DNA of 64,000 nt from assembly GCF_037042905.1 (NCBI RefSeq), contig NC_087250.1, positions 9,116,001 to 9,180,000 on the forward strand, written 5' to 3'. The position numbers were made by a program, and so were the translations under genes. The stretch comes from Lytechinus pictus. Taxonomy: Eukaryota. How positions within the stretch are numbered: position 1 is the first letter of the stretch; each line of letters starts with the position of its first letter. Of the stretch, positions 1,894-35,931 are shown piece by piece. The notes beneath the pieces were generated by a model. The model saw only the letters and a program-made list of their open reading frames with translations, made no database searches and was not told where the DNA came from.

Positions 1894-2626
1894 GGTTAAC
1901 TGACAGGCCAAATCAGATTGCGAACACATTGCCAAACAGAAAAACAGTTTTCGTGAGAGCAATTGTGGCGTAACAGAATGAAAACCAGGATCATGATCCA
2001 CAGAGAAAACACGATGGATGCCGAATCATTTTTTTAAATACCGGTAACTTTCGAAATATATTTTTCATAGCTATCCAGGAGGTAGTTAAGAAAGAGAACG
2101 CGAATTGATTCAGTGCGTAATCCATTCTGCACAGTGGCGTACAGATAGGGGCCTTGGGGTGGCGCTTGCCACTCCCCCCTCCCTAATTAAGAAAAGAATA
2201 TCACGACCAAGAGAAAAAATAGATAACGAGAATATGGTGGAATTTATATAATTTTCTGAATAATATGTCACACTCTTATCACAAATTTGAAAAATTGTCT
2301 TGACAATGTTAAAATTTTCGCTCGCAAATTTTAAATAAATTTTGCCCGATACGCCATACCGAACCCCAATTTTTTGGGCTCATTGCGCCACTGATATTCC
2401 ATAACGCCTTTTATAAACTAATCTCAGATGAGAACAATATAATAATAATAATAATAATAATAATGAATTAATGATAATAATAATAAATAAATAATAATAC
2501 ATAACAATATTAAAATTCTTAAAAACGCAAGTCATAACCTAAACAGTCTCCACTTGTGTGAACAGTGTCTATGCGAGTTACTATTTATTATCGAAAAGGG
2601 ATATAGTTGATTCCAGCTACTTTCGA

Positions 2627-4761
2627 TATTTTATTTATTTATTTATTTATTTATTTTGTTTTATTTATTTTATACTGCAGGGTAGGCCTGTTCAGTTCTT
2701 AAAACTGCTTTACAAAGGCGCCCTGCAGTTTAAAATACATGTCAAGATAACTATGAACAACAACAACAAACAACATCAAAAATACAAAATACAAAATATC
2801 TAACATCAGAAACAATTAACACCAAAATATAGAGTGGGAAGTGACAATTTAAACATACATAGCATTGTAAATCAAAGGAATATCATTTCGCTCTTTATCA
2901 ATTCGTATGAAAGGCTTTGCATAATTTTTTAAAAACAAACAAGGAGGTACAAACTTGTAAATTTGAAGGAAGTGCATTAAATAATTTGGGTCCGACATAT
3001 GCGAAAGATTTTCTTTTATGTTCAATTCTAGCTTTGGGAAGCTGAAGGGGGCATCGTAAAGAATACCGTGTCCTGTATTTCACGGGCCGTTTACATACTA
3101 AAGGTTTTAAATAATTTGGAACTAAATCATTGATTATTTTATATACAAGAACACAATACTGATATTTTATACGCTGATCTACTGATTGCCACTTCAGTGA
3201 CTGCAACAAAGAAATTTGTGATGTATTATAATCTTTTTTCAAAAGCATTCTGGCATATTTATTTTGAAGTTTTTGTATCTTATCTAAATGTATTTTTGCA
3301 CTGCTTCCCCAAGATGTAATACAGTAATCAATGTAAGGTAAAACCATAGAAAAGTACAGCTTCTTCATAATATCAAAGGACAGTAAATGCTTAATCCGCC
3401 TTACACAACCTATTGCCCGAGATATTTTACAAACGATATTAGTAATATGTTCGCACCAAGTCAAGCCCGGATCGAGCATGACACCTAAGTATTTAATCTT
3501 TTTTACATTTTCTAATTGTATGTTCCTGAATTTCACTGACAAATGAGCACCCCTCAACTTTTTCTGTTGACCAAATACCATGGCTTTTGTTTTTTTGCGG
3601 GTGTAAATGCATATTATTTAAGTCTAGCCATTTACTTATTGAATCAAAATCATCTTGCAAATACTTTTGTACCTCCTTAATTGATTCACCGTGATTAAAA
3701 ATGGCGGTATCATCAGCATAAAGATACATTTTAGAATGTACATGCAATTTCAAATTACACATGTCATTAATAAAAATACAAAATATCAATGGACCCAGTA
3801 TAGATCCTTGTGGGACACCTGATTTTATCTTCAAAAATTCACTGCGACAATTGTTAATCATTACAAATTGCCTTCTGTCTGTTAAATACGATTCCATCCA
3901 GTTGTATTAATTGCCAGTAATACCATAGTACTTAAGTTTTGCAAGTATAAAATTGTGAGGAATAACATCAAAAGCTTTGCGTAAGTCCAAGAAAATACCA
4001 CCAGTAACATGTTTTCGGTCCATTTTATCATACAAAAAGTCTGTAATCTCAGTTAGACAAGTGGCAGTAGAATAAGACGGTCTGAAGCCAGACTGACAAT
4101 TTGCAAGTAGATCATTTACATTTAAGTACTTATACAATTGATCATGTATTGCTCTCTCTAGTATTTTGGACAGGACTGGAAGCACAGAAATTGGTCTATA
4201 ATTGTCAATATCAAATGATCCTCCCTTATGTACAGGAGTAATTCTTGCTGTTTTAAAATCTTCTGGAATAACACTAGTTTGTAAAGTTGCATTAAATAAA
4301 TGGGTTAAAGGGCCAGCTATACTCTCTGCTGCCAGCTTAAGAAACTTAGGGTGTATGCCATCTACTCCGACCGCTTTCGAACAATCAATATGTAATAGTT
4401 CTTTCAAAACATACTCCTTTTTTATTGCATAAAATTTAAATTCACAATCTGGAATAAACAGAGTTTGTAAATTGTTTAATAAATCTTTCGAGAAATTACC
4501 CGAAGCGGCTTGCAACCTTGAGCCGACTTCATTAAAGGCTTTGTTTAGAACGTGAGCTATTTCATTGTTAGGTATTTGATCATTATCAATTGTTAATTTA
4601 ACATCATGACTCGTGGTTTTATTTTTCTTAGGTATAAGCTTCGATAAAATGTTCCAGTTCTTTTTTATGTCATTTTCGCAGTCCTTAAATTTGTCCTGAT
4701 AATACTTCTTTTTCAAATTTTTAATCAAGTTATTAGCTCTGTTACGGGAAAACTGAAATTA
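2627..4761 (-). mobile_element. 5'-truncated CR1-group (L2/Crack/Daphne-like) non-LTR retrotransposon
   Basis: RT motifs NYRPISVLPVLSKILE, DLRKAFD, GVPQGSILGP, YADDT, KYLGV; (TAAA)n tail at about 2627-2670; 3' stem-loop 2674-2729; interrupted at the 5' side by a TTAA MITE. Confidence 0.93.
2898..4750 (-). pseudogene. Disrupted LINE ORF2 (reverse transcriptase and C-terminal region)
   Basis: ORFs 3907-4728 and 3493-3897 share a frame separated by a premature TAA; frameshift in the T-run near 3590 joins ORF 2898-3581. Confidence 0.92.
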
Positions 4762-4765
4762 TTAA

Positions 4766-5777
4766 AGGGGAATCCAACATTTGTCATAAATGCTGTATGA
4801 GAGAGGAGACAAATATTATAGAATGGAGAAAGTTTGAAAGAAATCTGACAAGCAATAAGAAAGTTATGGCCGTTTTAAAACTGAAATCCGTACGACTGTG
4901 TATATTTCAATTTGGCAACTGGGTAAGTAAATCATAACAAGTGGTAATATAAGGACAACTCCCAAATGCACATGTACTAATTACCAGGGATTAGCAGTTT
5001 TCTCCTAACTACCTATTCCCCTAGGAGAGTATTTTAACAAGTCAGCAAATTTGAACAAGTTAGCATAATTGTTTTATTCCCTCATGAAAGAGTGAGTAAA
5101 AAATTGAGATTCCTAATGTACATTTTCAAATTGGCAGGTGGTTAGTAAAGTTAACTGTATTATTGGGTAAAATTTTAAACAGCCATAGGATAATTATGTG
5201 TCCAACCAATTTGGGGCTGTATTTTACCCAATGCAGGAAGAATATTGTTCAGTAAATATAAAAAAAATAAGCAGCAATTACTTTAGAATGGGCAAAATTT
5301 TCATCACACTGGATAAATAAAAAAGCCCAATATCGGTTGGACACATTATTACCCTCATGGAAAATTTTTACCACATATTTTTTAGAGTGTAAATTATGAC
5401 AAATGGTAGGGGGAGTTTCCATTTATAAGCCAATGATCAGCGGTTTCCCTGGTGTCAGTAATTATAATATAATAAAGGCAGCCTATATTGTGCTATGTCC
5501 TCCCATAAAAGAAATATATCAAATTGATGTGAAACTTAGAAAAAAGGGTCACTTTAGCCACTTTATGTATTGGAGTAAAATGCAAGAGTATAGTCCCTGC
5601 TTTAAATCACTATGATATCACCTATGCGGCCAGTTTGAAGTATCCGTGGGTATACAAATTTGGAATTTCTTATTGCTTGTCCGATATTGTGCAAACTTTC
5701 ACCTATGGGCCTTTATACTTGTCTGACTTTTCTTCTTGTTCTGAAAGCAAGTTTTTTTTTCGGGTTGGATTCCCCCT
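4766..5777. mobile_element. TTAA-flanked non-autonomous DNA transposon (Kolobok-like) with a nested insert
   Basis: TTAA|AGGGGAATCCAAC ... GTTGGATTCCCCCT|TTAA; TTAA TSD with AG..CT termini fits Kolobok rather than piggyBac. Confidence 0.8.
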
Positions 5778-6106
5778 TTAACCAAATCTTGGCTGTAGTC
5801 TGCGGACCGGATGATCATGGTATACTGAATTTCCGATGTTATCCATCCTGTTAATACAACATACATCCCTGGTCATCAAATCAATACTGAATATATTGCC
5901 AAACACCATTTCCGTAATCAGGCCTAGGCTTCTGTCCTTTTGCAACGTATATAGGGATCCCTCAGGTACATTGCATATAGGCTATGTACTGTTTGATAAT
6001 TTAATGATAATAATAATAATAACAAGTAAATAGTAATAATAATAATAACAACAATAGTATCAATAATAATAATTATAATAATAACAACAACAACAATTAA
6101 GAAACA

Positions 6107-6650
6107 ACAATAATGGGCAATAGTTACATTTACAAAGCGCTTCATACTTTGATTTATAAGCGATTTACCTTGTGATTGTTATTACCCTGGTGATAGGATC
6201 CACCGCTGTTCCACACATAAAGTGCTCCATCTCCACTCCCTGGGGAGTATCCTGGCCATGTAACCGTTTACCGGTGCACACATGCTAATCTAATCACATT
6301 GATTTCCACATCCTACCGGGCACCTGGGTGGAGAGCACTAGCGTACCTACGGGGGGGGGGGGGGCAGAGGGGGCAGACTGCCCCCCTGATGAATCACAAT
6401 CCATGCAAGGGACATATCCCTGCCCCCCTGACGAGTCTTGAATACTTTTTTTTTTTGCTTGTCAATTTTTTTTCTGGTACGAAATCCTTTATTTTTGGTT
6501 GAAGACCTTTTGTACGCCACTGGTGGAGAGTGACAAACACGGAGCAAGAGCCTTGCCAAAGGACATTAATTAGCGCAGGGTGGGGATTCGATCCCTCGAC
6601 CCTTGGTTCAAGAGTCAAGTGCCTGAAACAATATACCACGATCCGTCCAC
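6107..6650 (-). mobile_element. tRNA-derived SINE interrupted by a hAT-like MITE
   Basis: Minus-strand head GTGGACGGATCGTGGTATATTG...GGGATCGAATCCC (A/B-box-like); body resembles SINE at 37118-37392; (ATT/GTT)n tail. Confidence 0.7.
6336..6522. mobile_element. hAT-like MITE, 8-bp TSD GTGGAGAG
   Basis: CACTAGCGTAC...GTACGCCACTG termini; TSD at 6328-6335 and 6523-6530. Confidence 0.85.
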
Positions 6651-7006
6651 TAATAAAAACTTGAGAAAAGTTAAATTCCCTAGATTGTTTGACTTTAAAG
6701 GTTTACCATTGCGATAATTTGAGTTTAATAGAATTAGATCTACATTGCTAAAGGATTGATGAAAATTCAACAAAGGATAAGAGCGCTATGCCTATGAATT
6801 TTCATTCTCAAATTTGTGACGTAATACGCGAGCATCTTTCCCATGATTCTGGCTAAATCATGTAATATAAATTTCATAAATTGCATTTTTAAACGAATAT
6901 GATGGTTACAAATATTTTATTACAGAAGGGGGTATCAAAATAACGAATGGTGTGCGTGGCTGATGATCTATCTGGCTGCTCACGTAACTGAAATCACTTT
7001 GACGTA

Positions 7007-24360: not shown

Positions 24361-25188
24361 ATTGGGAGGGATACAAATAATTGCATAAAAATGAGTTTTT
24401 AAGAGGATCAACACCATTCTAAAGATATAAAACAGATATACAACAAAATAACGGGTGGTTCATTGTATCACATTCGTGATATTTCTTTAGCCAAAACAGC
24501 CAAATATTTTTTTAAATTTCAACACGAATGTTCGGTTGACAGAGCGAGTAGTATCGATGGGGGGGGGGGGCGTTCTCAAACTTTGGACCAGTCAGAGCAA
24601 AGGGATTACTCGTGGCATATGAAGAATGGTTTCTTGCATTATTTAATTGTCTCGTGATAGGAGGACCATGGTGACTGTTCTTTCTAAATTTTTGAAGTGA
24701 TGCACCATAAGAATGAGCAAAAAGGAAGATTTTTGAAGTATTTTATAGTCCATCAAAGGGAAAGTTGTTCACATGTGACATCACACATATCTGTTGCCAA
24801 TTGGAGGATCTCCGCAGCATTAGTGATTGCAATATTCAAATGCTCATAACTTTTTGATTGTTTGTCCAACTTTTCTCAAACTTTCTTTGATCTTATTCTT
24901 TGATTTTGCTTTTTCCACACAAGCCCACTTGTTTCAAGGGTTTCATTCCCCTGTAATATTGAGAATATCATTTAAATAGAAAACTATGATTTACACTGGT
25001 GCTCATTTATTCAATTCTTTGGATGAGTCTATAAAGCACTCAATACTTTCAAACGCAAACTCAAACTAACCAAATTAATCGTTACAATACTGAGATGAGT
25101 ACGAGTATGACCATCAACGAGTAAGGACGTGCCGCGTACCCTCTCCCGAGCTGTTTTAATCTACATAGGTATATGTCGGGCATTCAGC

Positions 25189-26236
25189 ATGAGCAAACAC
25201 GCATCAACGAGACAATCCGGAGCTAAGCGGCCTAGGGCGTCGGCTACCCCGTCTACCCCGTCCAGCCCTGATGCCAACTTGGGCGTGTCATCGGAAATGA
25301 AATCATATCTAGATGACTATTTTGGGAAAATTAATGAACGGTTGTCATCGTTGGAACGCCAAATTACTGTACAGAATACAAGACTTGAACATAGAATGGA
25401 GGAATTGGTTGCATCGCTAAATTTTCAAGCAAAAGAAATTGATGATTTGAAAACGAAACTGAGGAAAGTACAAGAGGAAAGTGATATGAAGGGGAAAAAA
25501 ACTTGAAGCTGAAATTGATAGACTTTCCGCCTACATATCGCGAGAGAACCTCGTCTTTTTGGGAATCCCAGAAAGTGGAGAGGGTGATGAGAATACGAAG
25601 GAAACTTTGAATAGATTTCTCGTCGAGAAATTGAAGTTGAGACAAGATTTTGTTTAACAAATTGAATATCAACGAGTTCATCGGGTGCAAGCTATACACA
25701 GACCACGCCCCATCAAAGCACGGTTCCTTAGATTTGCAGACAAGTTGACAATTGACAAGAATGCTAAATTGTTGAAGGGGAGTAAGATGTACATTGCACA
25801 AGATCTGCCCAAACGAATTCGAGAAGAAAGGAAAGCGCAGGCACCGGCCTTGAAAGCGGCACGGAACGCTGGGAAGCTTGCTTATTTCTCACGGGCGGAG
25901 CCGACTAAACTCTTCGTCGCTGGAAAATGGATCCCACGGGAGGACCAAGAGGAGCTCATCGGAATATGGGGGAAACAGAGTGGAGCAGGAATGAATAACG
26001 CCTCCCTGCAGATACATCGGGATCAGGCAGGAGTTAGGATGGAGCGGAATGGAGGAATACAACGAGGAAAAGCAGGTGACAGTGCATCGTTTACAGCGAG
26101 GAAGATATGGGCAAGGAGAGACGAGGGTCCGACCGAAAACGGCATCGAAGCAATGGAAAGCATCGGCGCTGAAGCAACGCAACATGAGGGATATCTCGCA
26201 GGAGCAGTAGGAGGAGAAAACGTCAAAGAATCGTAA
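25189..26236 (+). pseudogene. L1-type ORF1p (RNA-binding, Transposase_22-like), disrupted
   Basis: Heptad-rich region then RENLVFLGIPE...IEYQRVHR...PRPIKARFLRF...MYIAQDLPKRIREERK motifs; frameshift in A-run ~25495-25501 and premature TAA at 25655. Confidence 0.88.
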
Positions 26237-28110
26237 TTCTGTAAATATTTTCAGTAATAAAGGAAAATTAAAGCCGATAGGATTACTGGATGTGGAAGCT
26301 GTACGGAGGAGATAGGCCCTAAGGAATACAAGCAGTTACAGAAGCTAAGAAGGAGAAAGTGAAAGTTTGAGGAATAAACAGACCTGATGCCAACCATGCT
26401 ATCGAAAAGTAAGATTTGCCTCATCTCTTGTTTCTTGTTTAATAAACCATTCTCAGTTGCTGATAAATATATAACGAATTACACGTTTCCGTTTTCTCTA
26501 TACTAGACGAGGAAGCATTCGTCGCTTTAAATGTTATTTTGATGACTATACGTTAAAAAGTCGATGAATTACTCATCTTATAACAATATACCGTCAATTC
26601 TCCTAAAGAAGAAGAGAAAAGAATTGTAAAGAAGAATTTGAGCTGAGTATTTGGAAGATATAGGAAAGCGATCATTAATTCGAAGCCAAAATATTAGTTC
26701 ACTAACATCGGATGCAAGTATCATCATTTACTGAAGGAAATACGTCAACAACAACCAAAAAAAAAAAATACGAAAAGGAAAGAAGAAGAACACTAAAAAG
26801 ATAAGACGCTGTGTTGAGCGATGTTTGTGATAGTAATTCTTTTAATTTGGATACATTGCATCATATTTATTTGGTATTGAATATAAGGCTTCACAGTATA
26901 TAATGTATATGTTTTATTCAATGGCAAAGTAACCATAGTTGTGAAAGGTTTGAATAGACTCCCCCCAAAAAAGGAGTTATATGGACGGTTGAAGGGTCGA
27001 AGAATATTGTTCCCCATCTAAAATTAAAAGTAAAGCAGAGAGAAGTCCTTTCTTTGTTGATGTGTTTCATTCTTCTCATCACTTTGAAATATTAAAGACA
27101 TTAAACTGTGGCTTAAAGCCCATGAAATTACTCGAATCTATGATAACAATTGCTCCAATTTTATCTGGATTCAAGGCAATGCCATCTAATTCAAAGCTAT
27201 AAGAATTAGTCAAACAAAATAATGATTTTTAATTTGTTTAAAAATTTTGGCGAGGTAGTTATTGATTGAATAAGATAAGCCACTTGTCCATGAGGAAGAA
27301 CACGATATACTCTCAAGGAATTATGCACACAAAAAAGTAATGATAAAAAAAAAATAAAGGGTTTGAAGAAAGGAAGCACTTTTTTTTATTTTTATTATTA
27401 ATCAGAGAAAAAAAAATATAAATGAAATACAACAAGAAACAGACTGGAGTGTAATTTTGACACAATCTTTGGTTCTTGTAAATAAATAAAAATGAGGGGA
27501 AAATTGAATGTCATGTCAGTTATAATTGATCATACCACATCGGATGGAATTTTGCTGTTTGTACGTTATTCGGAAAAATAATAATAATGACGAATGTATT
27601 TAGAGGACAAGGATGGACAGAGAAGAAGAATTTGAAGTTTAATAACCTATTTGTATGTTGATACCATGTAGTTTGAAATCAATGACCTCATCACAGTCAT
27701 GTTTCAAATGAAGCGTATATATGGACACACCCAGTTCAAAAGAATGAATTCTATAGGTCATAGGAAAAAGAGATGATACAACTCAAGAGGAATCTTGTTC
27801 TTCTTCTTCTTTTTAATTGCAGTGTATAGGTTTGATTATTCTATGTAATCAACGTAATTGGTAGAAAATATTTTGATAGGGTAAGGAGAGGAATGGAAGG
27901 AGGAATCGCTGGAGTATATAATTGTTAATGTCAATTGCTACAGTATGACTCCTTTCTTTCTTCTCTCTCCCCCTCTTTCCCTTTTCTGCAAGATATGTTG
28001 TGCGATTGACATGCATATTTTAAAGAAAGATCCAATTGTTAGAGTGGCAATTGGTGTAATGTGTAAATTCCATTCTGTTGATTTGAAAAATTCAACTTGC
28101 GCTTACTTAA

Positions 28111-29319
28111 AGGTCAAGTCCACCCCAGCAAAATATTGATTTGAATAAATAGAGAAAAATTAAACTAACATAATGCTGAAAATTTCATCAAATTCGGGTG
28201 TAAAATAAGAAAGTTATGACATTTTAAAGTTTTGCTTATTTTTCACAAAACAGTGATATGCACAACTCAGTGACATGCAAATGAGTCAGCCGATGATGTC
28301 CATCACTCACTATTTCTTTTGTTTTTTATTGTTTGAATTATACAATATTCCATTTTTTACAGATTTAACCATAGGGACCGACTTTACTGAATCATATAGT
28401 ATTAAACAATGCTAATTCCACATGTTCAGGGAGGAATTAATCACTGTTTCACTTGACAATGAGGAGATAATTAGAATATTTCATATTTCGTTTAATAAAA
28501 TACAAAAGAAATAGTGAGTGGATGACGTCATCACTCTCCTCATTTGCATACCAACCAGGATGTGCATATAACTGTTTTGTGAAATTAAAGGACAAGTCCA
28601 CCCCAACAAAAACTTGATTTGAATAAAAAGAGAAAAATTCAACAAGCATAACACTGAAAATTTCATCAAAATCGGATGTAAAATAAAAAAGTTATGGCAT
28701 TTTAAAGTTTCGCTTATTTTCAACAAAATAGTTATATGAACGAGCCAGTTACATCCAAATGAGAGAGTTGATGACATCACTCACTCACTATTTCTTTTGT
28801 ATTGTATTATATGAAATATGAAATATTTTTATTTTCTCGTCATTGTCATGTGAATGAAGTTTCATTCCTCCCTGAACTCGTGGGATTCCATTATTTTAAC
28901 ATTTTGTGCTTCAGGCAAGGAGGTCCTAATCGTCAAATTCGTAAAAATTGAAATATTGTATAATTCAAACAATAAAAAACAAAAGAAATAGTGAGTGAGT
29001 GACATCATCGACTCTCTCATTTGGATGTAACTGGCTCGTTCATATAACTATTTTGTTGAAAATAAGCGAAACTTTGAAATGTCATAACTTTCTTATTTTA
29101 CATTCGATTTTGATGAAATTTTCAGCATTGTGCTTGTCTGATTTTTCTCTATTGATTCAAATCAACATTGTTCTGAGGTGGACTTGACCTTTAAGCGAAA
29201 CTTTAAAATGTCATAACTTTCTTATTTTACATCCGATTTTGATGAAATTTTCAGTGCTGTGCTTGTTGGATTTTTCTCTTTTTATTCAAATCAATTATTT
29301 GTTGGGGTGGACTTGTCCT
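28111..29319. mobile_element. Kolobok-like MITE containing a related MITE (28589-29190) at an internal TTAA
   Basis: Outer TTAA|AGGTCAAGTCCACC...GGTGGACTTGTCCT|TTAA; inner TTAA|AGGACAAGTCCACC...GGTGGACTTGACCT|TTAA. Confidence 0.9.
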
Positions 29320-30611
29320 TTAAAGAGACATTCTTCAGAACTTTAGAATCTAATTTTGAACTGGACGTCTGGAATAAATGTTGATAAGACGCTAATACTT
29401 TAAAGGCGTCGTACAGTAAACAATAATCCTCTGGTATGTTCTTTTACACGATTGTTTATTCTTGTTAATGTCATTTAAAAACGACTGCAATTTCCTTTAT
29501 TCCTTGTAAATGTTTAAGATGAAAGATTCCAAATGATTCAGCATGTTCAATATAATCCGACAGTGTATTATAAGAAATAATGATATATGGTCGAGTGGCC
29601 ACATTAACTCGATTGTAATGGCAATCAGTGAATCCACTGGTATTTTAATAGACATTAGAATGAAAAGGAATGAAAAGCAAATATTTCAGAGACAAAACAC
29701 AATAATTCTTGTAAAGAGGGTGTGTTATAATACGCCTCACGTGTATTCAATAGATTGTTAAAACATAATGCAAATGATAAGTCTATATAATGCAAATGAG
29801 GTGGGGGAGAATCTCGTCAAGCATGCGTTTAATTTAATTCGAAATAAGTATACGAAGATTCCTTTTCTCTTCCTACACCTTTTAGGTGAATGCAATGTCT
29901 GCTTAAAGATTCAGTGGTATATTTGATTAGATAATAGGTAACCATGATTACATAACCTTACTGATCATGGTTTGAAAATCTTAATTGAATCGTTGGTGGG
30001 ATCTCATATACTCTTTTAAAATCAAACTGAATTAGAATGAATGTATCTTAGATGCAAATTTCGAAAAGGTTTAAGGTTCCAATAGTGGTCCTTTTGTATT
30101 ATCCTTTTCGGTCTTAAAGGAGAAGGTTTTCAAAAGAATGTAGATATAGAAGTTGCAAATCAATTGGGTAAACATTGAACTTTTAATCCATATCTTAGTA
30201 TATGTGGGTCGCCGGTATTTAGGGCATGAATATAGTCGAGAGGCAATTTCCTCAGGATAATGTTGTAGTCCACAGGTTTTTTTTTTCTCTTTATTTTCCT
30301 TTGCTCATTATTGACTTACCTTCAAAATAAATCTCAAGTTAGGGAGAGGGGTTGGCGAGACATGATGAAGATGTCTAAGACATGTAAGAGGGTTTTCGTT
30401 TTAAACATTTCCTTTATAGGAAGATCTCCCTTGATGGTCTTGCTTGTTGATGTTTGTTTTATGTGCACTTTGTTTTTCGTTTCCTATTTTCTTTCAGGGT
30501 CAGTTGGCAGTGGCATTTTGATCATGATCAGATTTACATGTAGGCCGGGCGGACAGGGTGCGGCGCTCTTCCACTTCTCATCCCACGATTTATTATCTTG
30601 TCCATACCCCT

Positions 30612-33600
30612 GTGTTTAATTCTTTAATCTGCAATTTCATATCTTTAAATGTTAAGGGAACTCGAGAACGTCATAAGAGGCAAAATATATTTAAATGGTG
30701 TAAGGATAAAAAAGGGCATATTATTTTTCTCCAGGAAACTTTTAGCACTCAAGATATTGTTAGTAATTGGAGTTCATGTGGGATGGCTTTTGTATTTTTA
30801 GTCACGGTACAAACCACGGTAAAGGCGTTATGATTTTAGTAGATAAAGGGTTTGATATCTCAATAAAACATACAATCATCGATACAGGAGGTAGATACAT
30901 TTTTATTATTGGATCTTTGCAAAATCAGGAAGTAATATTGGGAAATGTTTATTTCCCTGTTAGTAGTAAAGTGCACGAGCAACTTGAGTTTTTGGATTCT
31001 ATTATTAAGATTTTAGGAAGAAAGGAGTTCCAAAATAAACCTTTTATTATAGGAGGAGACTTCAATATGGTTAGGGATATTTATTTAGATTATGATGGAA
31101 AAAACGTAAACAAGAAGCAATCTAAACTTAGTTCAATGTTCGAAAATTTTCTTACGGATTATAAGGCCTTAGATATATGGCGTGTTAAAAATGATTCCAA
31201 GAAACAATATACCTATCATCAAGGAAATCCGTATATGCAAAGTCGATTGGATTACTGGGTGGTTTCAGATATTTTAGAAGAGAAAGTGTTGAATTGTAAA
31301 ATAATACCTTCATTATCACCTGATCACTCAGCAATAGAACTCAATATTAATTTTAATCATATGGTCAAACCAACGATTAAGACTGGTTATTGGAAATTTA
31401 ATAACAGTTTATGTAAGGTCGAAGAATATGTTAAAAGTATGAAGGAGGAAATTATTCGTTTGAAACAGATGTTATCAATAGAGATTATGGACAGCAGAAT
31501 TTTATGGGATTATGTTAAAATGGAAATCCGAAGTTTTACTAGGAAGTACACAAAGAAAAAGGCAAAAGAAAGAAGAGAAAAGATTACAAAGTTGGAAAAG
31601 GAAATTGTAAAATTAGAAGAAGAACTGCAACAAAGACCAAGTAATAAAAATAAGGATTCAATTGACATTTTAACCAGGAAAAGAAATGAATTAAAAGCAA
31701 TTTATACTCATGTTAATGAAGGTATAGAAATCAGATCTCGAGCGCCGTGGTTTGAAAGTGGGGAAAGGGAAACCGCATATTTTAAACAATTGACAGATTC
31801 TAATGGGAAAAAATGTGTAATTAAAAAACTTAAGGTGAATGAAAATATAATTAGTGATGAAATTAATATTTTAAATGAAATCCGAAAGTTTTATTCATCA
31901 TTATACGCTAAATCTGAGGCAGGATTATGCGACGATAATACGTTTTTTCCCAATAGCTTACCCAAACTAACAAAAAATCAGAGTAATCACTGTGAAGGAA
32001 AAATAAACCAAGGTGATTGTATTGAAATCTTAAAAGAAATGCAACTTAATAAATCTCCGGGGAATGATGGACTGAGCGTCGAGTTTTACATTACATTTTG
32101 GCATGTTGTAGGTGATTTAGTTATTAACGGCCTTAATGATAGTTTGATTCATAAAGAATTATCGCCCTCTCAGAGGCAAGCAGTAATTACACTAATACAC
32201 AAGGGGGATAAAGACCCTACAGTCATTAGCAATTACAGACCCATTTCACTTCTCAATGTAGATTATAAAATACTTTCTAAAAGAATAAAAGCGATTCTGA
32301 GTAACATTATTTCAGTTGACCAGGTAGGGTATTTAAATGACAGAAATATTGGTGAAGCAGTAAGATTAATTAATGACATGATATTTCATACCTCACATTT
32401 TAATAAATCGGGTTATTTATTAGCAATCGATTTTGAAAAGGCTTTCGATTCAATTTCACACGCTTTTCTTCAAAAGGCACTTTGTTCATTCGGTTTTGGA
32501 ACGATGTTTAGGGATTGGGTCAAAGTAATTTACACTAACACACTATGCTGCGTTTTCAATGGAGGGAGATCAACTGGCTATTTCGATGTTGAGCGGGGGC
32601 TAAGGCAGGGGGACCCCCTGTCCCCATATCTTTTTATATTGTGTATAGAGTGTTTAACTCACTCTATTCGAAACGATAATTCAGTAAGGGGTATTTGCTT
32701 TGGCGATACGGAAATTAAGCAGGTTCTTTATGCTGATGACATGACAATATTTGTGCAAGATTTAGACTCTATAGATAGATTATACATTATCCTTGAGAAG
32801 TTCAAGAAAATATCTGGACTGAAAATTAATAAAAATAAAACTTTCATTTTGCCTCTAGGGCCTCCTGTTCCACCGGGGAACAGCTTTCCATTCGGTAAAA
32901 GAGTTGATATTGTGAAAATACTGGGTATTTACTTTTCACTCAACCCTGATGTCGCTGAAGAAATGAATTTCAAAGAAATTTTGAGCAAAACCAAAAAGTT
33001 ATTAAATTGGTGGAAACAACGAGATCTCACTTTGATAGGAAAAATTCATTTGCTTAAAACGTATGCGTTTTCCAAATTGACTTATGTGAGCTCCCTATCT
33101 TCAGTTCCAGACTGGGTTTTCAAAGAAATTGATGATACATGTTTTGACTTTTTATGGCGGGGGAAAGACAAAATAAAAAGAAATACTTTATATCTGGATT
33201 ACCGACAAGGTGGGCTAAAAATGCTCAATTTCAAACTATTTATAATGGTACAAAGAGTGATGTGGATTAAAAGATTAGTTACTGGTGACCAGAGAGCAAA
33301 GTGGAAAAGATATTTTAAATTTCTCCTGAGAACATTTGGTGGTCTTTTAATATTTTACTGCAATTTTTCCCCTGATATGGTCGATATTAAATTACCAAAA
33401 TATTACCGAGAAATGTTATGTATTTGGTCTGATATGAATATTTTTATTAAAAAAGATACAAATTGTAAAAGAAATGAAATTTTCTTTAATAATAAGTGTA
33501 TTTTGAAGAAAGGAAAAACGTTTTTTCATGAAAATCTGTTCCTCAAAAATATTTTTAAATTTCATCACATTACAGATGTTAAGGGGGCACTTAAGCCGGA

Positions 33601-34363
33601 TAATTATTTCAGATGTATGGGATTGGACGAGGAGGAAGTATCAGTTATTCAAGAAATATTTGCACATACCCCCAGAGAATGGAAAGACAGATTAAGAAGG
33701 AATACTTCAGTGGACGGCTTGAATATTGAATTTGTCTTTTATGAGAAAAAAATTCAATTCGACTCGGTTACTTCCAAAAATCTATATAGAGGGTGTATAA
33801 AACAAATTGCTGAACAACCAGTTAGTTTTCATAACTTAGCATTATTATATAATCTGTCAAATAAAGAAATTGAGAAAACATTTTATCGTCCTAGATTTAG
33901 TACGTTGGATAACAAATTGAGAGAATTTCAATTTAAAATGCTATACAATATCATCTTTCTGAATCATCACTTATACAGGTTTCATTTTATAGCAAGTGAT
34001 AAATGTTCCTTCTGTAGAAAATACGAAGAAACATATAAGCATTTATTTTTTGAATGTGAAAAAGTAGGAGATTTGTGGGTACGGAGTAGTAATTTGTTTG
34101 GCCTTCCAATTCTAAAAAAACTAAGCTGGATGGAAATCCATATTGGTCTCAAGGAAACAACCGAAAACATACAATTACTTAATCATATCATTTTGCTAAT
34201 CAAATATTTAATATATCAAGGGAGAGGGAAGGGTAAACCACCAACTCCTGAAGAGATAAAGGAAAAGTTACTTATTAGCAAAGAAGAAGAAAAGAAAATT
34301 GCATTAGAGCGTAATACGTTAACGCGACACTATAAGAAATGGGAATATTTAAAGGTTTTATAA
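30612..34363 (+). CDS. L1/Tx1 ORF2p: AP-endonuclease + reverse transcriptase + CCHC zinc knuckle (one N-terminal frameshift)
   Basis: SLNVKG, FLQET, GGDFN, SRLDYW, PDHS (APE); NYRPISLLNVDYK, DFEKAFD, GLRQGDPLSP, YADD (RT); CSFC-x7-HLFFEC; frameshift near 30770 joins ORF 30558-30833 to the 1198-aa ORF; start codon uncertain. Confidence 0.93.
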
Positions 34364-34481
34364 ACATTAACCAAAATAAAAAGGATGGGAAAGGGAGGGG
34401 TGCCCCTCGTCTGCCCGTGCATGGAATCGATCGATCACTGTCGCTGTAAACTGACCTCTGTCCTGTCTGTTATTGGTTCGT

Positions 34482-34482
<1 letters not shown>

Positions 34483-34522
<40 letters not shown>

Positions 34523-34600
34523 CCTTTTAATTGTTCCTGTCCTTTGCTTTTTTTTTTTTTTTTTTTCTCTCTCTCTCCGTTATGTGTATGGTGTTTTTTT
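34483..34600 (+). repeat. Poly-T tracts in the L1/Tx1 3' UTR
   Basis: Long T runs between ORF2 stop and polyadenylation signal. Confidence 0.85.
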
Positions 34601-35104
34601 TTTCTGTCTATTTCTCCCGTTTCTTGTTGTTGGTGTGTTAGTTTGTTCAGCTTTGGGGTCTGATAGGGGGGGCTCATGGGACGGGAGAATGCTCATATAC
34701 ATTCATTCTTTAAATTTGCGTAGTTGTTACGTCTTTGTTTTATTATTTGCTTTATACCTGCATACATAAGTTGTTGAAATGTTATTTTTGCATGAGTTCG
34801 GATTATGTCTCTTTTCTGATACAATTTGCCTGCTGTGTTTATTACACTGTTATTTAATTTGTGTATTGCACTGCTGCAATTATCATTTTGTTCTATATTT
34901 TCTTGATTATGTATGTATGAAATTTATTTGAATTAATAATAAAGATCACTACAAAACAAAAAGATATAAAAACTTAAATGCAGAATTTCTTTTTTCTCTT
35001 CCCCTCAGTGGTGTAATGAGCAAAAAAAAAAAATGGAATAGCTGTCCTCTTTCTGTGCGATAAGTATCTTGTCGAGATGAGAATTATGTGACTCCCCCAT
35101 TTTT

Positions 35105-35292
35105 ATTTTTTTAAGTGCACACCTAGTTACCAATAATGCATATAGCATTTCCATTTATTTGAAAGCAGGATAAAAGAGCATTGTAGATTAGATGCCTTGC
35201 TCACGGGCATAGGTGCCGCGGCCGGGGATCGAACCCCGGTCTTTCCATGAACAGCCAGGCGCCTTAGACCACTCGGCCAAGGCACCTCCCCA
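35105..35292 (-). mobile_element. tRNA-derived SINE (head and partial body)
   Basis: Minus strand GGAGGTGCCTTGGCCGAGTGGTCTAAGG (A box) ... GGTTCGATCCCC (B box) followed by non-tRNA body GAGCAAGGCA. Confidence 0.75.
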
Positions 35293-35334
35293 TGCCGACC
35301 AGTAGCCTGTAGTAGCGCCACCTCCAGTCTTTAA

Positions 35335-35931
35335 AGGACAAGTCCACCCCAACAAAAAGTTGATTCGAATAAAGAGAGAAAAATCCAACAAGCATAACAC
35401 TGACATTTTCATCCAAATCGGTTGTAAAATAAGAAAGTTATGACATTTCAAAGTTTCGCTTCATTTCACAAAACAGTTATATATTCACATCCTTGTCGGT
35501 ATGAAGATGAGGAGACTGATGACATCACTCACTTTTTCTTTAGCATTTTATTATGTGAAATATTTCAATTTTCTCCCTGTTGTCGCGTGAAACAACGATA
35601 AATTCCTCCCTGAAAATGTGCAATTAGCATTGTTTAATACTATATGGTTCAATCAAGTTGGCCTTTATTGTCAAATCTGAAAAAAAAAATGTATTGTATA
35701 ATTCAAACAATACAAAACAAAAGAAACAGTGAGTGAGGGACGCCATCGACTGTCTTATTTGCATGTCATTGAGTTGTGCATATCACTGTTTTGTGAAAAA
35801 TGAGCGAAAATTTAAAATGTCATAACTCTTTTGTTTTACATCCGATTTTGATGACATTTTCAGCATAATGCTTGTTTGATTTTTCTCTATTTTTTATTCA
35901 AACCAACATTTTTCTCGGGTGGACTTGACCT
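35335..35931. mobile_element. Kolobok-like TTAA MITE (AGGACAAGTCCACC family)
   Basis: TTAA TSD at 35331-35334 and 35932-35935 with matching TIRs. Confidence 0.9.

Follow-up and report, generated by a model that had tools for sequence, protein, structure and literature searches.

An L1-type LINE of Lytechinus pictus with an exceptionally long non-coding region between ORF1 and ORF2, probably mobilised as unspliced RNA

In a vertebrate L1 survey (PMC5381506), the inter-genic region between the two open reading frames (ORFs) measures 0–1,032 bp, and at most 719 bp in mammals, a length reached among the L1s of megabat, opossum and afrotherians (Yang et al. 2014, via PMC5381506). For fish L1s the same survey describes inter-ORF regions that are AT-rich, carry T-rich repeats and have a predicted internal ribosome entry site (IRES) adjoining ORF2; IRES-like elements adjoining ORF2 have been proposed for L1s with long inter-genic regions, and scanning across such regions has been doubted (PMC5381506). 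The subject of this report is an L1-type long interspersed nuclear element (LINE) of Lytechinus pictus, a full-length copy of which lies in a window of 64,000 nt (the whole stretch of DNA analysed; contig NC_087250.1, G000:C6:9116001-9180000) of a genome that was searched over 812 Mb. The copy belongs to a family, A, that has a sister family, B. The spacer between ORF1 and ORF2 is about 4.5 kb in both, which is roughly fourfold the maximum in the vertebrate survey, 1,032 bp (PMC5381506). A first-pass annotation, made from the letters of the window, had stated that L1-clade spacers are usually far shorter than the one seen here, and the vertebrate range of 0–1,032 bp bears this out.

In general plan, family A is like the vertebrate and fish L1s of that survey: it is bicistronic, with an ORF1 (coiled coil and RNA recognition motif, RRM) and an ORF2 (apurinic/apyrimidinic endonuclease, APE, reverse transcriptase and Cys motif), a short 5′ untranslated region (UTR), an AT-rich inter-ORF region that is T-rich near ORF2, and a 3′ end bearing AATAAA and an A tail (PMC5381506). 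It differs from them in the length of the inter-ORF region, given there as 257–1,032 bp, and in an ORF2 start that lacks ATG. The L1s of megabat, opossum and afrotherians share with the present families a long inter-ORF region that persists in active lineages, and in cell culture that region is described as dispensable or inhibitory; they are, however, mammalian L1s with no more than 719 bp between the ORFs (PMC5381506). No report of a multi-kilobase L1 inter-ORF region was found in the full-text literature, a coverage that leaves out Repbase and subscription journals.

Penelope-like elements encode enzymes with a GIY-YIG endonuclease and a telomerase-like reverse transcriptase, unlike ORF2 here, which has an APE endonuclease and an L1-type reverse transcriptase. 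They are the only group of retroelements to which retained spliceosomal introns are generally ascribed (PMC4209133), and they set the precedent for the introns proposed at first pass. Human L1 RNA contains usable splice sites, and spliced RNAs have been retrotransposed, leaving intron-free copies known as spliced integrated retrotransposed elements (SpIREs; Larson et al. 2018, PMC5860796). Splicing of human L1 is described there as a harmful dead end for the element and not as a regulatory device (PMC5860796).

ORF1, spacer and ORF2 belong to one element. Genome searches with ORF1, two pieces of the spacer, the middle of ORF2 and the 3′ end led to the same places, with family-A copies 93–99% identical, and the order ORF1-spacer-ORF2 is collinear in at least seven other copies. 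Those used for comparison were L019/L035 (contig C2), L020/L036 (C10), L022 (C1) and L032 (a second place on C2); L035, L036, L022 and L032 run collinear with the window (97–98% identity), starting in ORF1 or in the spacer and continuing through ORF2. Seven copies begin at the same letters (window 25103–25106) with unrelated DNA upstream. Seven (the window and six loci) likewise share the 3′ end, AATAAA followed by a short A-rich end at window position ~34962, with unrelated DNA downstream. Four copies are 5′-truncated inside the spacer (window-equivalent positions 26304, ~27163, 30001 and 30217), and several others inside ORF2. The suggestion of the first-pass annotation that the three parts travel together is upheld by the collinear copies, the common 5′ end and the truncations inside the spacer, and the same observations (copies that keep the spacer collinear, begin at one 5′ end and are truncated within the spacer) fit its view that unspliced RNA is mobilised.

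The element can be classed as an L1-type LINE because of the domains of ORF2, its match to human L1 ORF2p and the match of ORF1 to human L1 ORF1p; solved structures only were compared, and the class as used here takes in L1 proper and Tx1 alike. Pfam models recognised in ORF2 are RVT_1 (E 1.5e-36), Exo_endo_phos (E 2.1e-6; 28.1 bits, cut-off 24.5) and zf-RVT (E 1.1e-6; 29.6 bits, cut-off 27.5). The open ORF2 of L022 matched human L1 ORF2p (8sxt) at E 5.7e-90 over residues 36–911, as against 2.7e-20 for R2, and the L1 endonuclease structures 1vyb and 8sp5 matched ORF2 at E about 2e-15. ORF1 is without a Pfam match; the ORF1 of the sister family matched human L1 ORF1p (2ykp) over the coiled coil and RRM at E 0.002, which is weak support, and the ORF1 proteins of the two families are 43% identical, a protein-level indication of the same type for family A. 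The L1-superfamily features present are thus the APE endonuclease, the L1-like reverse transcriptase, the C-terminal zinc motif, 5′-truncated copies, a polyadenylation signal, an A-rich 3′ end and, with weak support, an ORF1 of the coiled-coil and RRM type. Flanks were compared for seven copies on the upstream side and for seven on the downstream side, and all differ, so that no single target repeat is apparent, which argues against a target-specific, Tx1-like insertion habit.

The window copy is dead. Its stop-to-stop frames are a broken ORF1 (25111–26236) and a split ORF2 frame (30528–34363); in ORF1 an additional base within the A run near 25495 shifts the frame and a stop stands at 25655, and ORF2 has a single frameshift. 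Family A nevertheless looks recently active, since open frames are present for ORF2 in L022 and L032 (1282 codons) and for ORF1 in L035 and L036 (374 codons).

The spacer of family A is about 4.46 kb long (4457 nt; L035 1147–5603). The earlier figure of about 3.1 kb is right for the window copy once a nested miniature inverted-repeat transposable element (MITE) is taken out, but not for the family, as the window copy misses 1329 bp. This segment, missing at window position 27642, is held at no fewer than 10 other places, including old copies at 80–92% identity, and occurs in the genome only inside family copies. The nested MITE of 1.2 kb noted at first pass is indeed present, measuring 1209 bp, and is specific to the window: it is flanked by a TTAA duplication, the other copies join 28110 directly to 29320, and L035 has the empty site. 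Its ends are AGGTCAAGTCCACCCC and GGGGTGGACTTGTCCT, and internally it is composite, with several inverted sub-copies. Related MITE copies lie at about 35188–35460 of the window and in L028.

In composition the first half of the spacer is A-rich and the last ~500 nt are T-rich, with a G>C skew throughout, as in the remaining sense strand; the initial description of an A-rich strand therefore applies to the first half but not to the last ~500 nt. The sense strand of the 3′ UTR is also T-rich (51% T in L035 9501–10000), with T runs of ~20–40 whose length varies among copies. One duplication of ~365 bp was found in the spacer by BLAST, and no tandem arrays were found in the family-A spacer by TRF. 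Of 85 stop-free segments of at least 40 aa in the A and B spacers, none scored above the Pfam cut-off, and no Rfam match to the spacer was better than E 0.94. The absence of a protein-family match above the Pfam cut-off agrees with the earlier view of the spacer as non-coding. A hidden third ORF or a decayed ORF1 within the spacer was considered and rejected, there being no Pfam match above the cut-off and no tblastn match at E 1e-5. Nested known repeats were likewise rejected as its content, as genome searches return family copies only. The exceptions are two places of ~70% identity, on contigs C3 and C9, and some low-complexity matches of ~45 nt. The C9 place is an isolated 405-nt piece, while that on C3 is an old, internally deleted relative (L043, G000:C3:40474000-40483999), about 68–80% identical to family A. 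L043 holds two spacer pieces (L035 3425–3664 and 4091–4488) collinear with fragments of ORF2 and the 3′ UTR, which implies that some of the spacer predates the young copies by a long time. Within family A, the spacer has changed faster between subfamilies than the ORFs have (in L024, 81–87% identity as against 91–92%). These comparisons support the spacer as a non-coding part of the source element that would have been retrotransposed, unspliced, with ORF1 and ORF2.

A long spacer appears to be a trait of the lineage. In the sister family (L027 and relatives), ORF2 is 75% and ORF1 56% identical to family A at the nucleotide level. L027 has ORF1 at 1293–2261, a spacer of 4531 nt (2262–6792) and ORF2 from an ATG at 6793, and the order ORF1-spacer-ORF2 is collinear at 98–99% in L027, L040, L041 and L042. 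The family-B spacer is whole or nearly whole at seven or more genome places, and further copies are truncated inside it. Similarity between the A and B spacers is confined to the last ~165 nt before ORF2. Among more distant relatives, L037 and L038 are single degenerate copies and L045 is without the expected ORF2 start.

These last ~165 nt before ORF2, the leader, are the sole part of the spacer conserved with the sister family. The leader starts with a T-rich tract and an AG, read as TTTCAG/G in family A and TTAAG/G in family B, and continues after the AG as GGTCAGTT..GCAGTG.CA..TTTGATCATGATC in the A/B alignment. The palindrome TGATCATGATCA spans 12 bp in family A and 10 bp in the sister family. 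A block at 30498–30530 of the window holds an RGGTCA motif, TCAGTT and the palindrome; TCAGTT we take to be an initiator-like motif and RGGTCA presumably a half-site, and these could be candidate protein-binding sites of an internal promoter.

The start of ORF2 is unusual in family A, as ATG is absent there in all eight copies examined, whereas the sister family has one. Residue 36 of the ORF2 frame aligns with residue 9 of human ORF2p, so that ORF2 would be expected to start near residue 28 of the frame, adjoining GTG 30612. The first in-frame ATG lies ~100 codons downstream, beyond the N-terminal endonuclease motifs. An upstream ORF of 31 codons runs from ATG 30524, inside the conserved palindrome, to TAA 30617–30619 and overlaps the expected ORF2 start. 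The absent ATG, the GTG and the overlapping upstream ORF suggest, at the level of sequence, non-AUG initiation or termination-coupled re-initiation.

Among the copies compared, deletions of at least 30 bp in or touching the spacer number five: 1329 bp (window), 57 bp (L035), 38 bp (L036), 408 bp (three copies on contig C18) and ~4.4 kb (a copy on C16). None of the five has GT..AG ends, unlike the copies left by spliced human L1 RNA (PMC5860796), and none matches a proposed intron. The 1329-bp gap of the window was considered as an excised intron and rejected, its ends against L019 being not GT..AG but TAA microhomology; splicing was also rejected, on the junction sequences, for the 408-bp and ~4.4-kb gaps. 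The three C18 copies consist of the 5′ part of the element, lie on the same strand within 47 kb (G000:C18:8886751-8933376) and have an identical 408-bp deletion, so a single insertion, multiplied by local segmental duplication, probably accounts for them.

In RNA runs X19–X21 (with the same species label; ~6% of each), 25, 11 and 12 reads, mostly partial, fell on L035 and showed no junctions at the proposed introns, at a depth too low for a splicing test. Contigs X1 are collinear with the unspliced form, although X1 is possibly DNA. One joint alone appeared in RNA: two reads in X21 connect L035 3889 with 8276 across an intervening TAT. This joint reproduces the junction present in the genome in the C16 copy with the internal deletion (L046, G000:C16:22370780-22371000), and therefore does not represent splicing. 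That defective copy is transcribed, perhaps within a host transcript.

Taken together, this locus is probably best read as belonging to an autonomous L1-type LINE, recently active, that has an exceptionally long and non-coding inter-ORF region, is mobilised unspliced and has its ORF2 translated with the aid of the leader. A full-length, unspliced bicistronic RNA would be both messenger and template. L1 proteins act preferentially on their own encoding RNA (cis-preference), and since all copies keep the spacer, the RNA from which ORF2p is made would itself be unspliced. Ribosomes would then come to ORF2 either through internal entry or through re-initiation that the conserved leader promotes, and the ORF2 start in family A would be a non-AUG codon, for which GTG 30612 is a candidate. 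Alisch et al. reportedly found in 2006 that ORF2 of human L1 can start without an AUG. Both sister families would have kept the length of the spacer, about the same in each, although drift left no recognisable similarity in its sequence save for the last ~165 nt; the 3.1 kb of the window copy, its private MITE aside, results from a private 1.3-kb deletion. The short GT..AG segments would, on the same reading, be chance products of AT-rich sequence with runs of pyrimidines and purines.

Table 1. Coordinates of the element, its parts and the proposed splice sites in the window
Feature	Position	Strand	Remarks
L1-type LINE, full-length copy (family A)	25103..34962	+	Common 5′ end and common 3′ end, unrelated flanks
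Short 5′ UTR	25103..25188	+	Common 5′ end to first ATG of the ORF1 frame
ORF1 (coiled coil and RRM-like, L1 ORF1p type), broken in window copy	25189..26236	+	
Inter-ORF spacer, non-coding, AT-rich	26237..30611	+	Collinear in other copies
Proposed intron 1	26409..26506	+	Donor 2.1, acceptor 3.9 bits; in all copies reaching there; AG to AC in L024; unsupported
Proposed intron 2	27255..27405	+	Donor 1.5, acceptor -0.5 bits; unsupported
Point where window copy lacks 1329 bp held by other copies	27641..27643	+	
Acceptor without paired donor	27822	+	5.8 bits
Proposed intron 3	27881..27992	+	Donor 6.3, acceptor 6.1 bits; best pair of moderate sites; unsupported
Nested MITE private to window copy	28111..29319	.	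Inverted ends, TTAA duplication 28107-28110 / 29320-29323
Proposed intron 4	29434..29518	+	Donor 3.7, acceptor -5.4 bits; unsupported
Proposed intron 5	29801..29885	+	Donor 6.6, acceptor 7.9 bits; unsupported
Proposed intron 6	30384..30497	+	Weak donor 3.0, acceptor 10.3 bits (conserved-leader site); 11/11 copies keep segment
Leader	30470..30611	+	T-rich tract, AG 30496-30497, TCAGTT, palindrome TGATCATGATCA 30519-30530, upstream ORF from ATG 30524
ORF2 (APE endonuclease, reverse transcriptase, C-terminal zinc motif)	30612..34363	+	GTG at 30612; frameshift near 30774
3′ UTR, T-rich with long T runs	34364..34962	+	AATAAA 34938-34943, short A-rich end

The first-pass annotation had proposed several short sense introns in the spacer, which may be retained in the RNA that is mobilised and spliced in other transcripts, so as to tune ORF2 or to appear host-like, and this is now very improbable. 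The GT and polypyrimidine-AG letters do stand at the positions it gave (Table 1), and these dinucleotides are kept in nearly all copies, which at 80–98% identity says little either way. Sites were scored with an approximate metazoan matrix, so that values are rough, with donors counted from 2 bits, acceptors from 3.5 bits and pairs at 60–250 nt, against 200 dinucleotide shuffles. The family-A spacer has 12 donors, 8 acceptors and 6 pairs on the sense strand and 7, 9 and 1 on the antisense strand (shuffles 9.8 ± 3.2, 2.5 ± 1.6 and 1.0 ± 1.2), and the family-B spacer 20, 12 and 10 against 0, 12 and 0 (shuffles 8.4 ± 3.0, 3.7 ± 1.7 and 1.3 ± 1.5). The window spacer without the MITE gives 10, 6 and 6 on the sense and 5, 6 and 1 on the antisense strand; for 30 background tiles of equal length the means are 6.1, 3.3 and 1.3, and the observed values are reached by 2, 5 and 1 of them. 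Pairs on the sense strand thus exceed both the shuffles (0 of 200 reach the 6 of family A or the 10 of family B) and the antisense strand (1 and 0). However, multiplying the site densities predicts a similar number of pairs (about 4 in A, about 10 in B), and the strand-biased enrichment over shuffled spacer that the intron proposal looked to is absent for single sites in family A: donor-like sites are not enriched there (12 against 9.8 ± 3.2), and acceptor-like sites are enriched alike on both strands, with their pyrimidine and purine runs. The sites themselves are weak, four of the six donors having 3.7 bits or less and two acceptors scoring below 0. Donor 29801 is removed in L035 by the 57-bp deletion without GT..AG ends (the position is unreadable in L024), and the AG at 26506 is AC in L024. 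Proposed intron 3 is retained in all copies reaching it, and its GT at 27881 is AG in L043. A search for copies missing exactly the proposed segments found none among those compared, and the sister-family spacer shares no segment. The spacer is real and remarkable in length, and the introns are unsupported.

A different possibility is that the leader marks a real boundary of RNA processing or transcription, either as a 3′ splice site at 30497 closing one large intron, whose donor would lie close to the stop codon of ORF1 or within the 5′ UTR and which would yield a short-spacer or ORF2-only mRNA, or as an internal promoter for an ORF2 transcript. Splicing of human L1 RNA is known (PMC5860796). 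The strongest acceptor-like site of the spacer lies at the start of its sole conserved block, GTAAG-type motifs occur near the 5′ end (25119) and past the ORF1 stop, the conserved palindrome and the initiator-like motif would suit a promoter, and the family-A ORF2 is without ATG. Yet none of the 11 copies reaching 30498 starts or is joined there; upstream of that point all 11 run on into the spacer or end by truncation at other positions (30001, 30045, 30217). Two stops in the ORF2 frame just past 30498 make an in-frame fusion impossible, and the GTAAGG near the 5′ end is AATAAG in the sister family. Under cis-preference, an RNA that needed splicing to yield ORF2p would be the one copied, yet the copies are unspliced. 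A boundary at the leader is accordingly judged unlikely. It is doubtful, too, that the whole spacer is a maintained functional module, in which the polypyrimidine-AG and leader ~115–130 nt before ORF2 are a true 3′ splice site or internal start and a second RNA (ORF2-only or with a short spacer) supplies ORF2p while the unspliced RNA is copied; if it were so, a LINE would divide its tasks between a genomic and a subgenomic RNA, much as retroviruses do. At the other extreme, the spacer may be a functionless historical accident, that is, DNA taken up between a 5′ module (promoter and ORF1) and an ORF2 module, or the decayed relics of older parts of the element; host or other DNA would have entered by read-through or template switching and been tolerated since. 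The lack of sequence constraint outside the leader fits such an origin, as do the internal duplications and simple repeats of the spacer and the greater divergence of ORF1 than of ORF2 between families (56% against 75% nucleotide identity), as expected if 5′ modules turn over. It is hard to reconcile, however, with the failure to find a source locus, spacer pieces being in family copies apart from the C3, C9 and ~45-nt low-complexity matches, or with the absence of an ORF1-like remnant from the spacer in the tblastn search at E 1e-5, and near-equal lengths (4457 and 4531 nt) after complete turnover of sequence would be odd for junk. An accident of this kind is consequently rather improbable as well.

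Several observations weigh against an unspliced element with leader-aided ORF2 translation, which is nonetheless the preferred reading. Besides the sense-strand excess of pairs given above, the sister family has an excess of sense donors (20 against 8.4 ± 3.0, with 0 on the antisense strand) that comes only partly from internal repeats. No acceptor-like site of the spacer outscores the AG at 30496–30497 (10.3 bits in the window, 12.8 in L035), which both families keep and which sits precisely where the conserved leader starts. No stable RNA fold is predicted in the leader (z +0.57 and +0.26 against mononucleotide shuffles), and without one the folding model lends no support to an IRES-like role. 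No clear target-site duplication emerged, the best words shared by the flanks being 5–6 nt, in three copies. L038, a single, degenerate and more distant relative, has only ~470 bp between ORF1 and ORF2, so that either the long spacer is not universal in the group or L038 suffered a deletion, which makes it weak evidence on the ancestral state. Lastly, a neutral spacer of 4.5 kb would be costly for a LINE, and its persistence hints at function.

How L1 ORF2 is translated from a bicistronic RNA is debated, with re-initiation and internal entry as the alternatives. The present lineage, which looks recently active and has open ORFs in two families, combines 4.5 kb between the ORFs, a conserved leader of ~165 nt and one family without an AUG for ORF2. 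With AUGs and stops throughout those 4.5 kb, neither scanning nor re-initiation across them is plausible, and these elements lend themselves to the testing of internal initiation on LINE RNA. The two families would also show that several kilobases of sequence under no constraint can travel with a LINE as a passenger over many successive cycles of retrotransposition.

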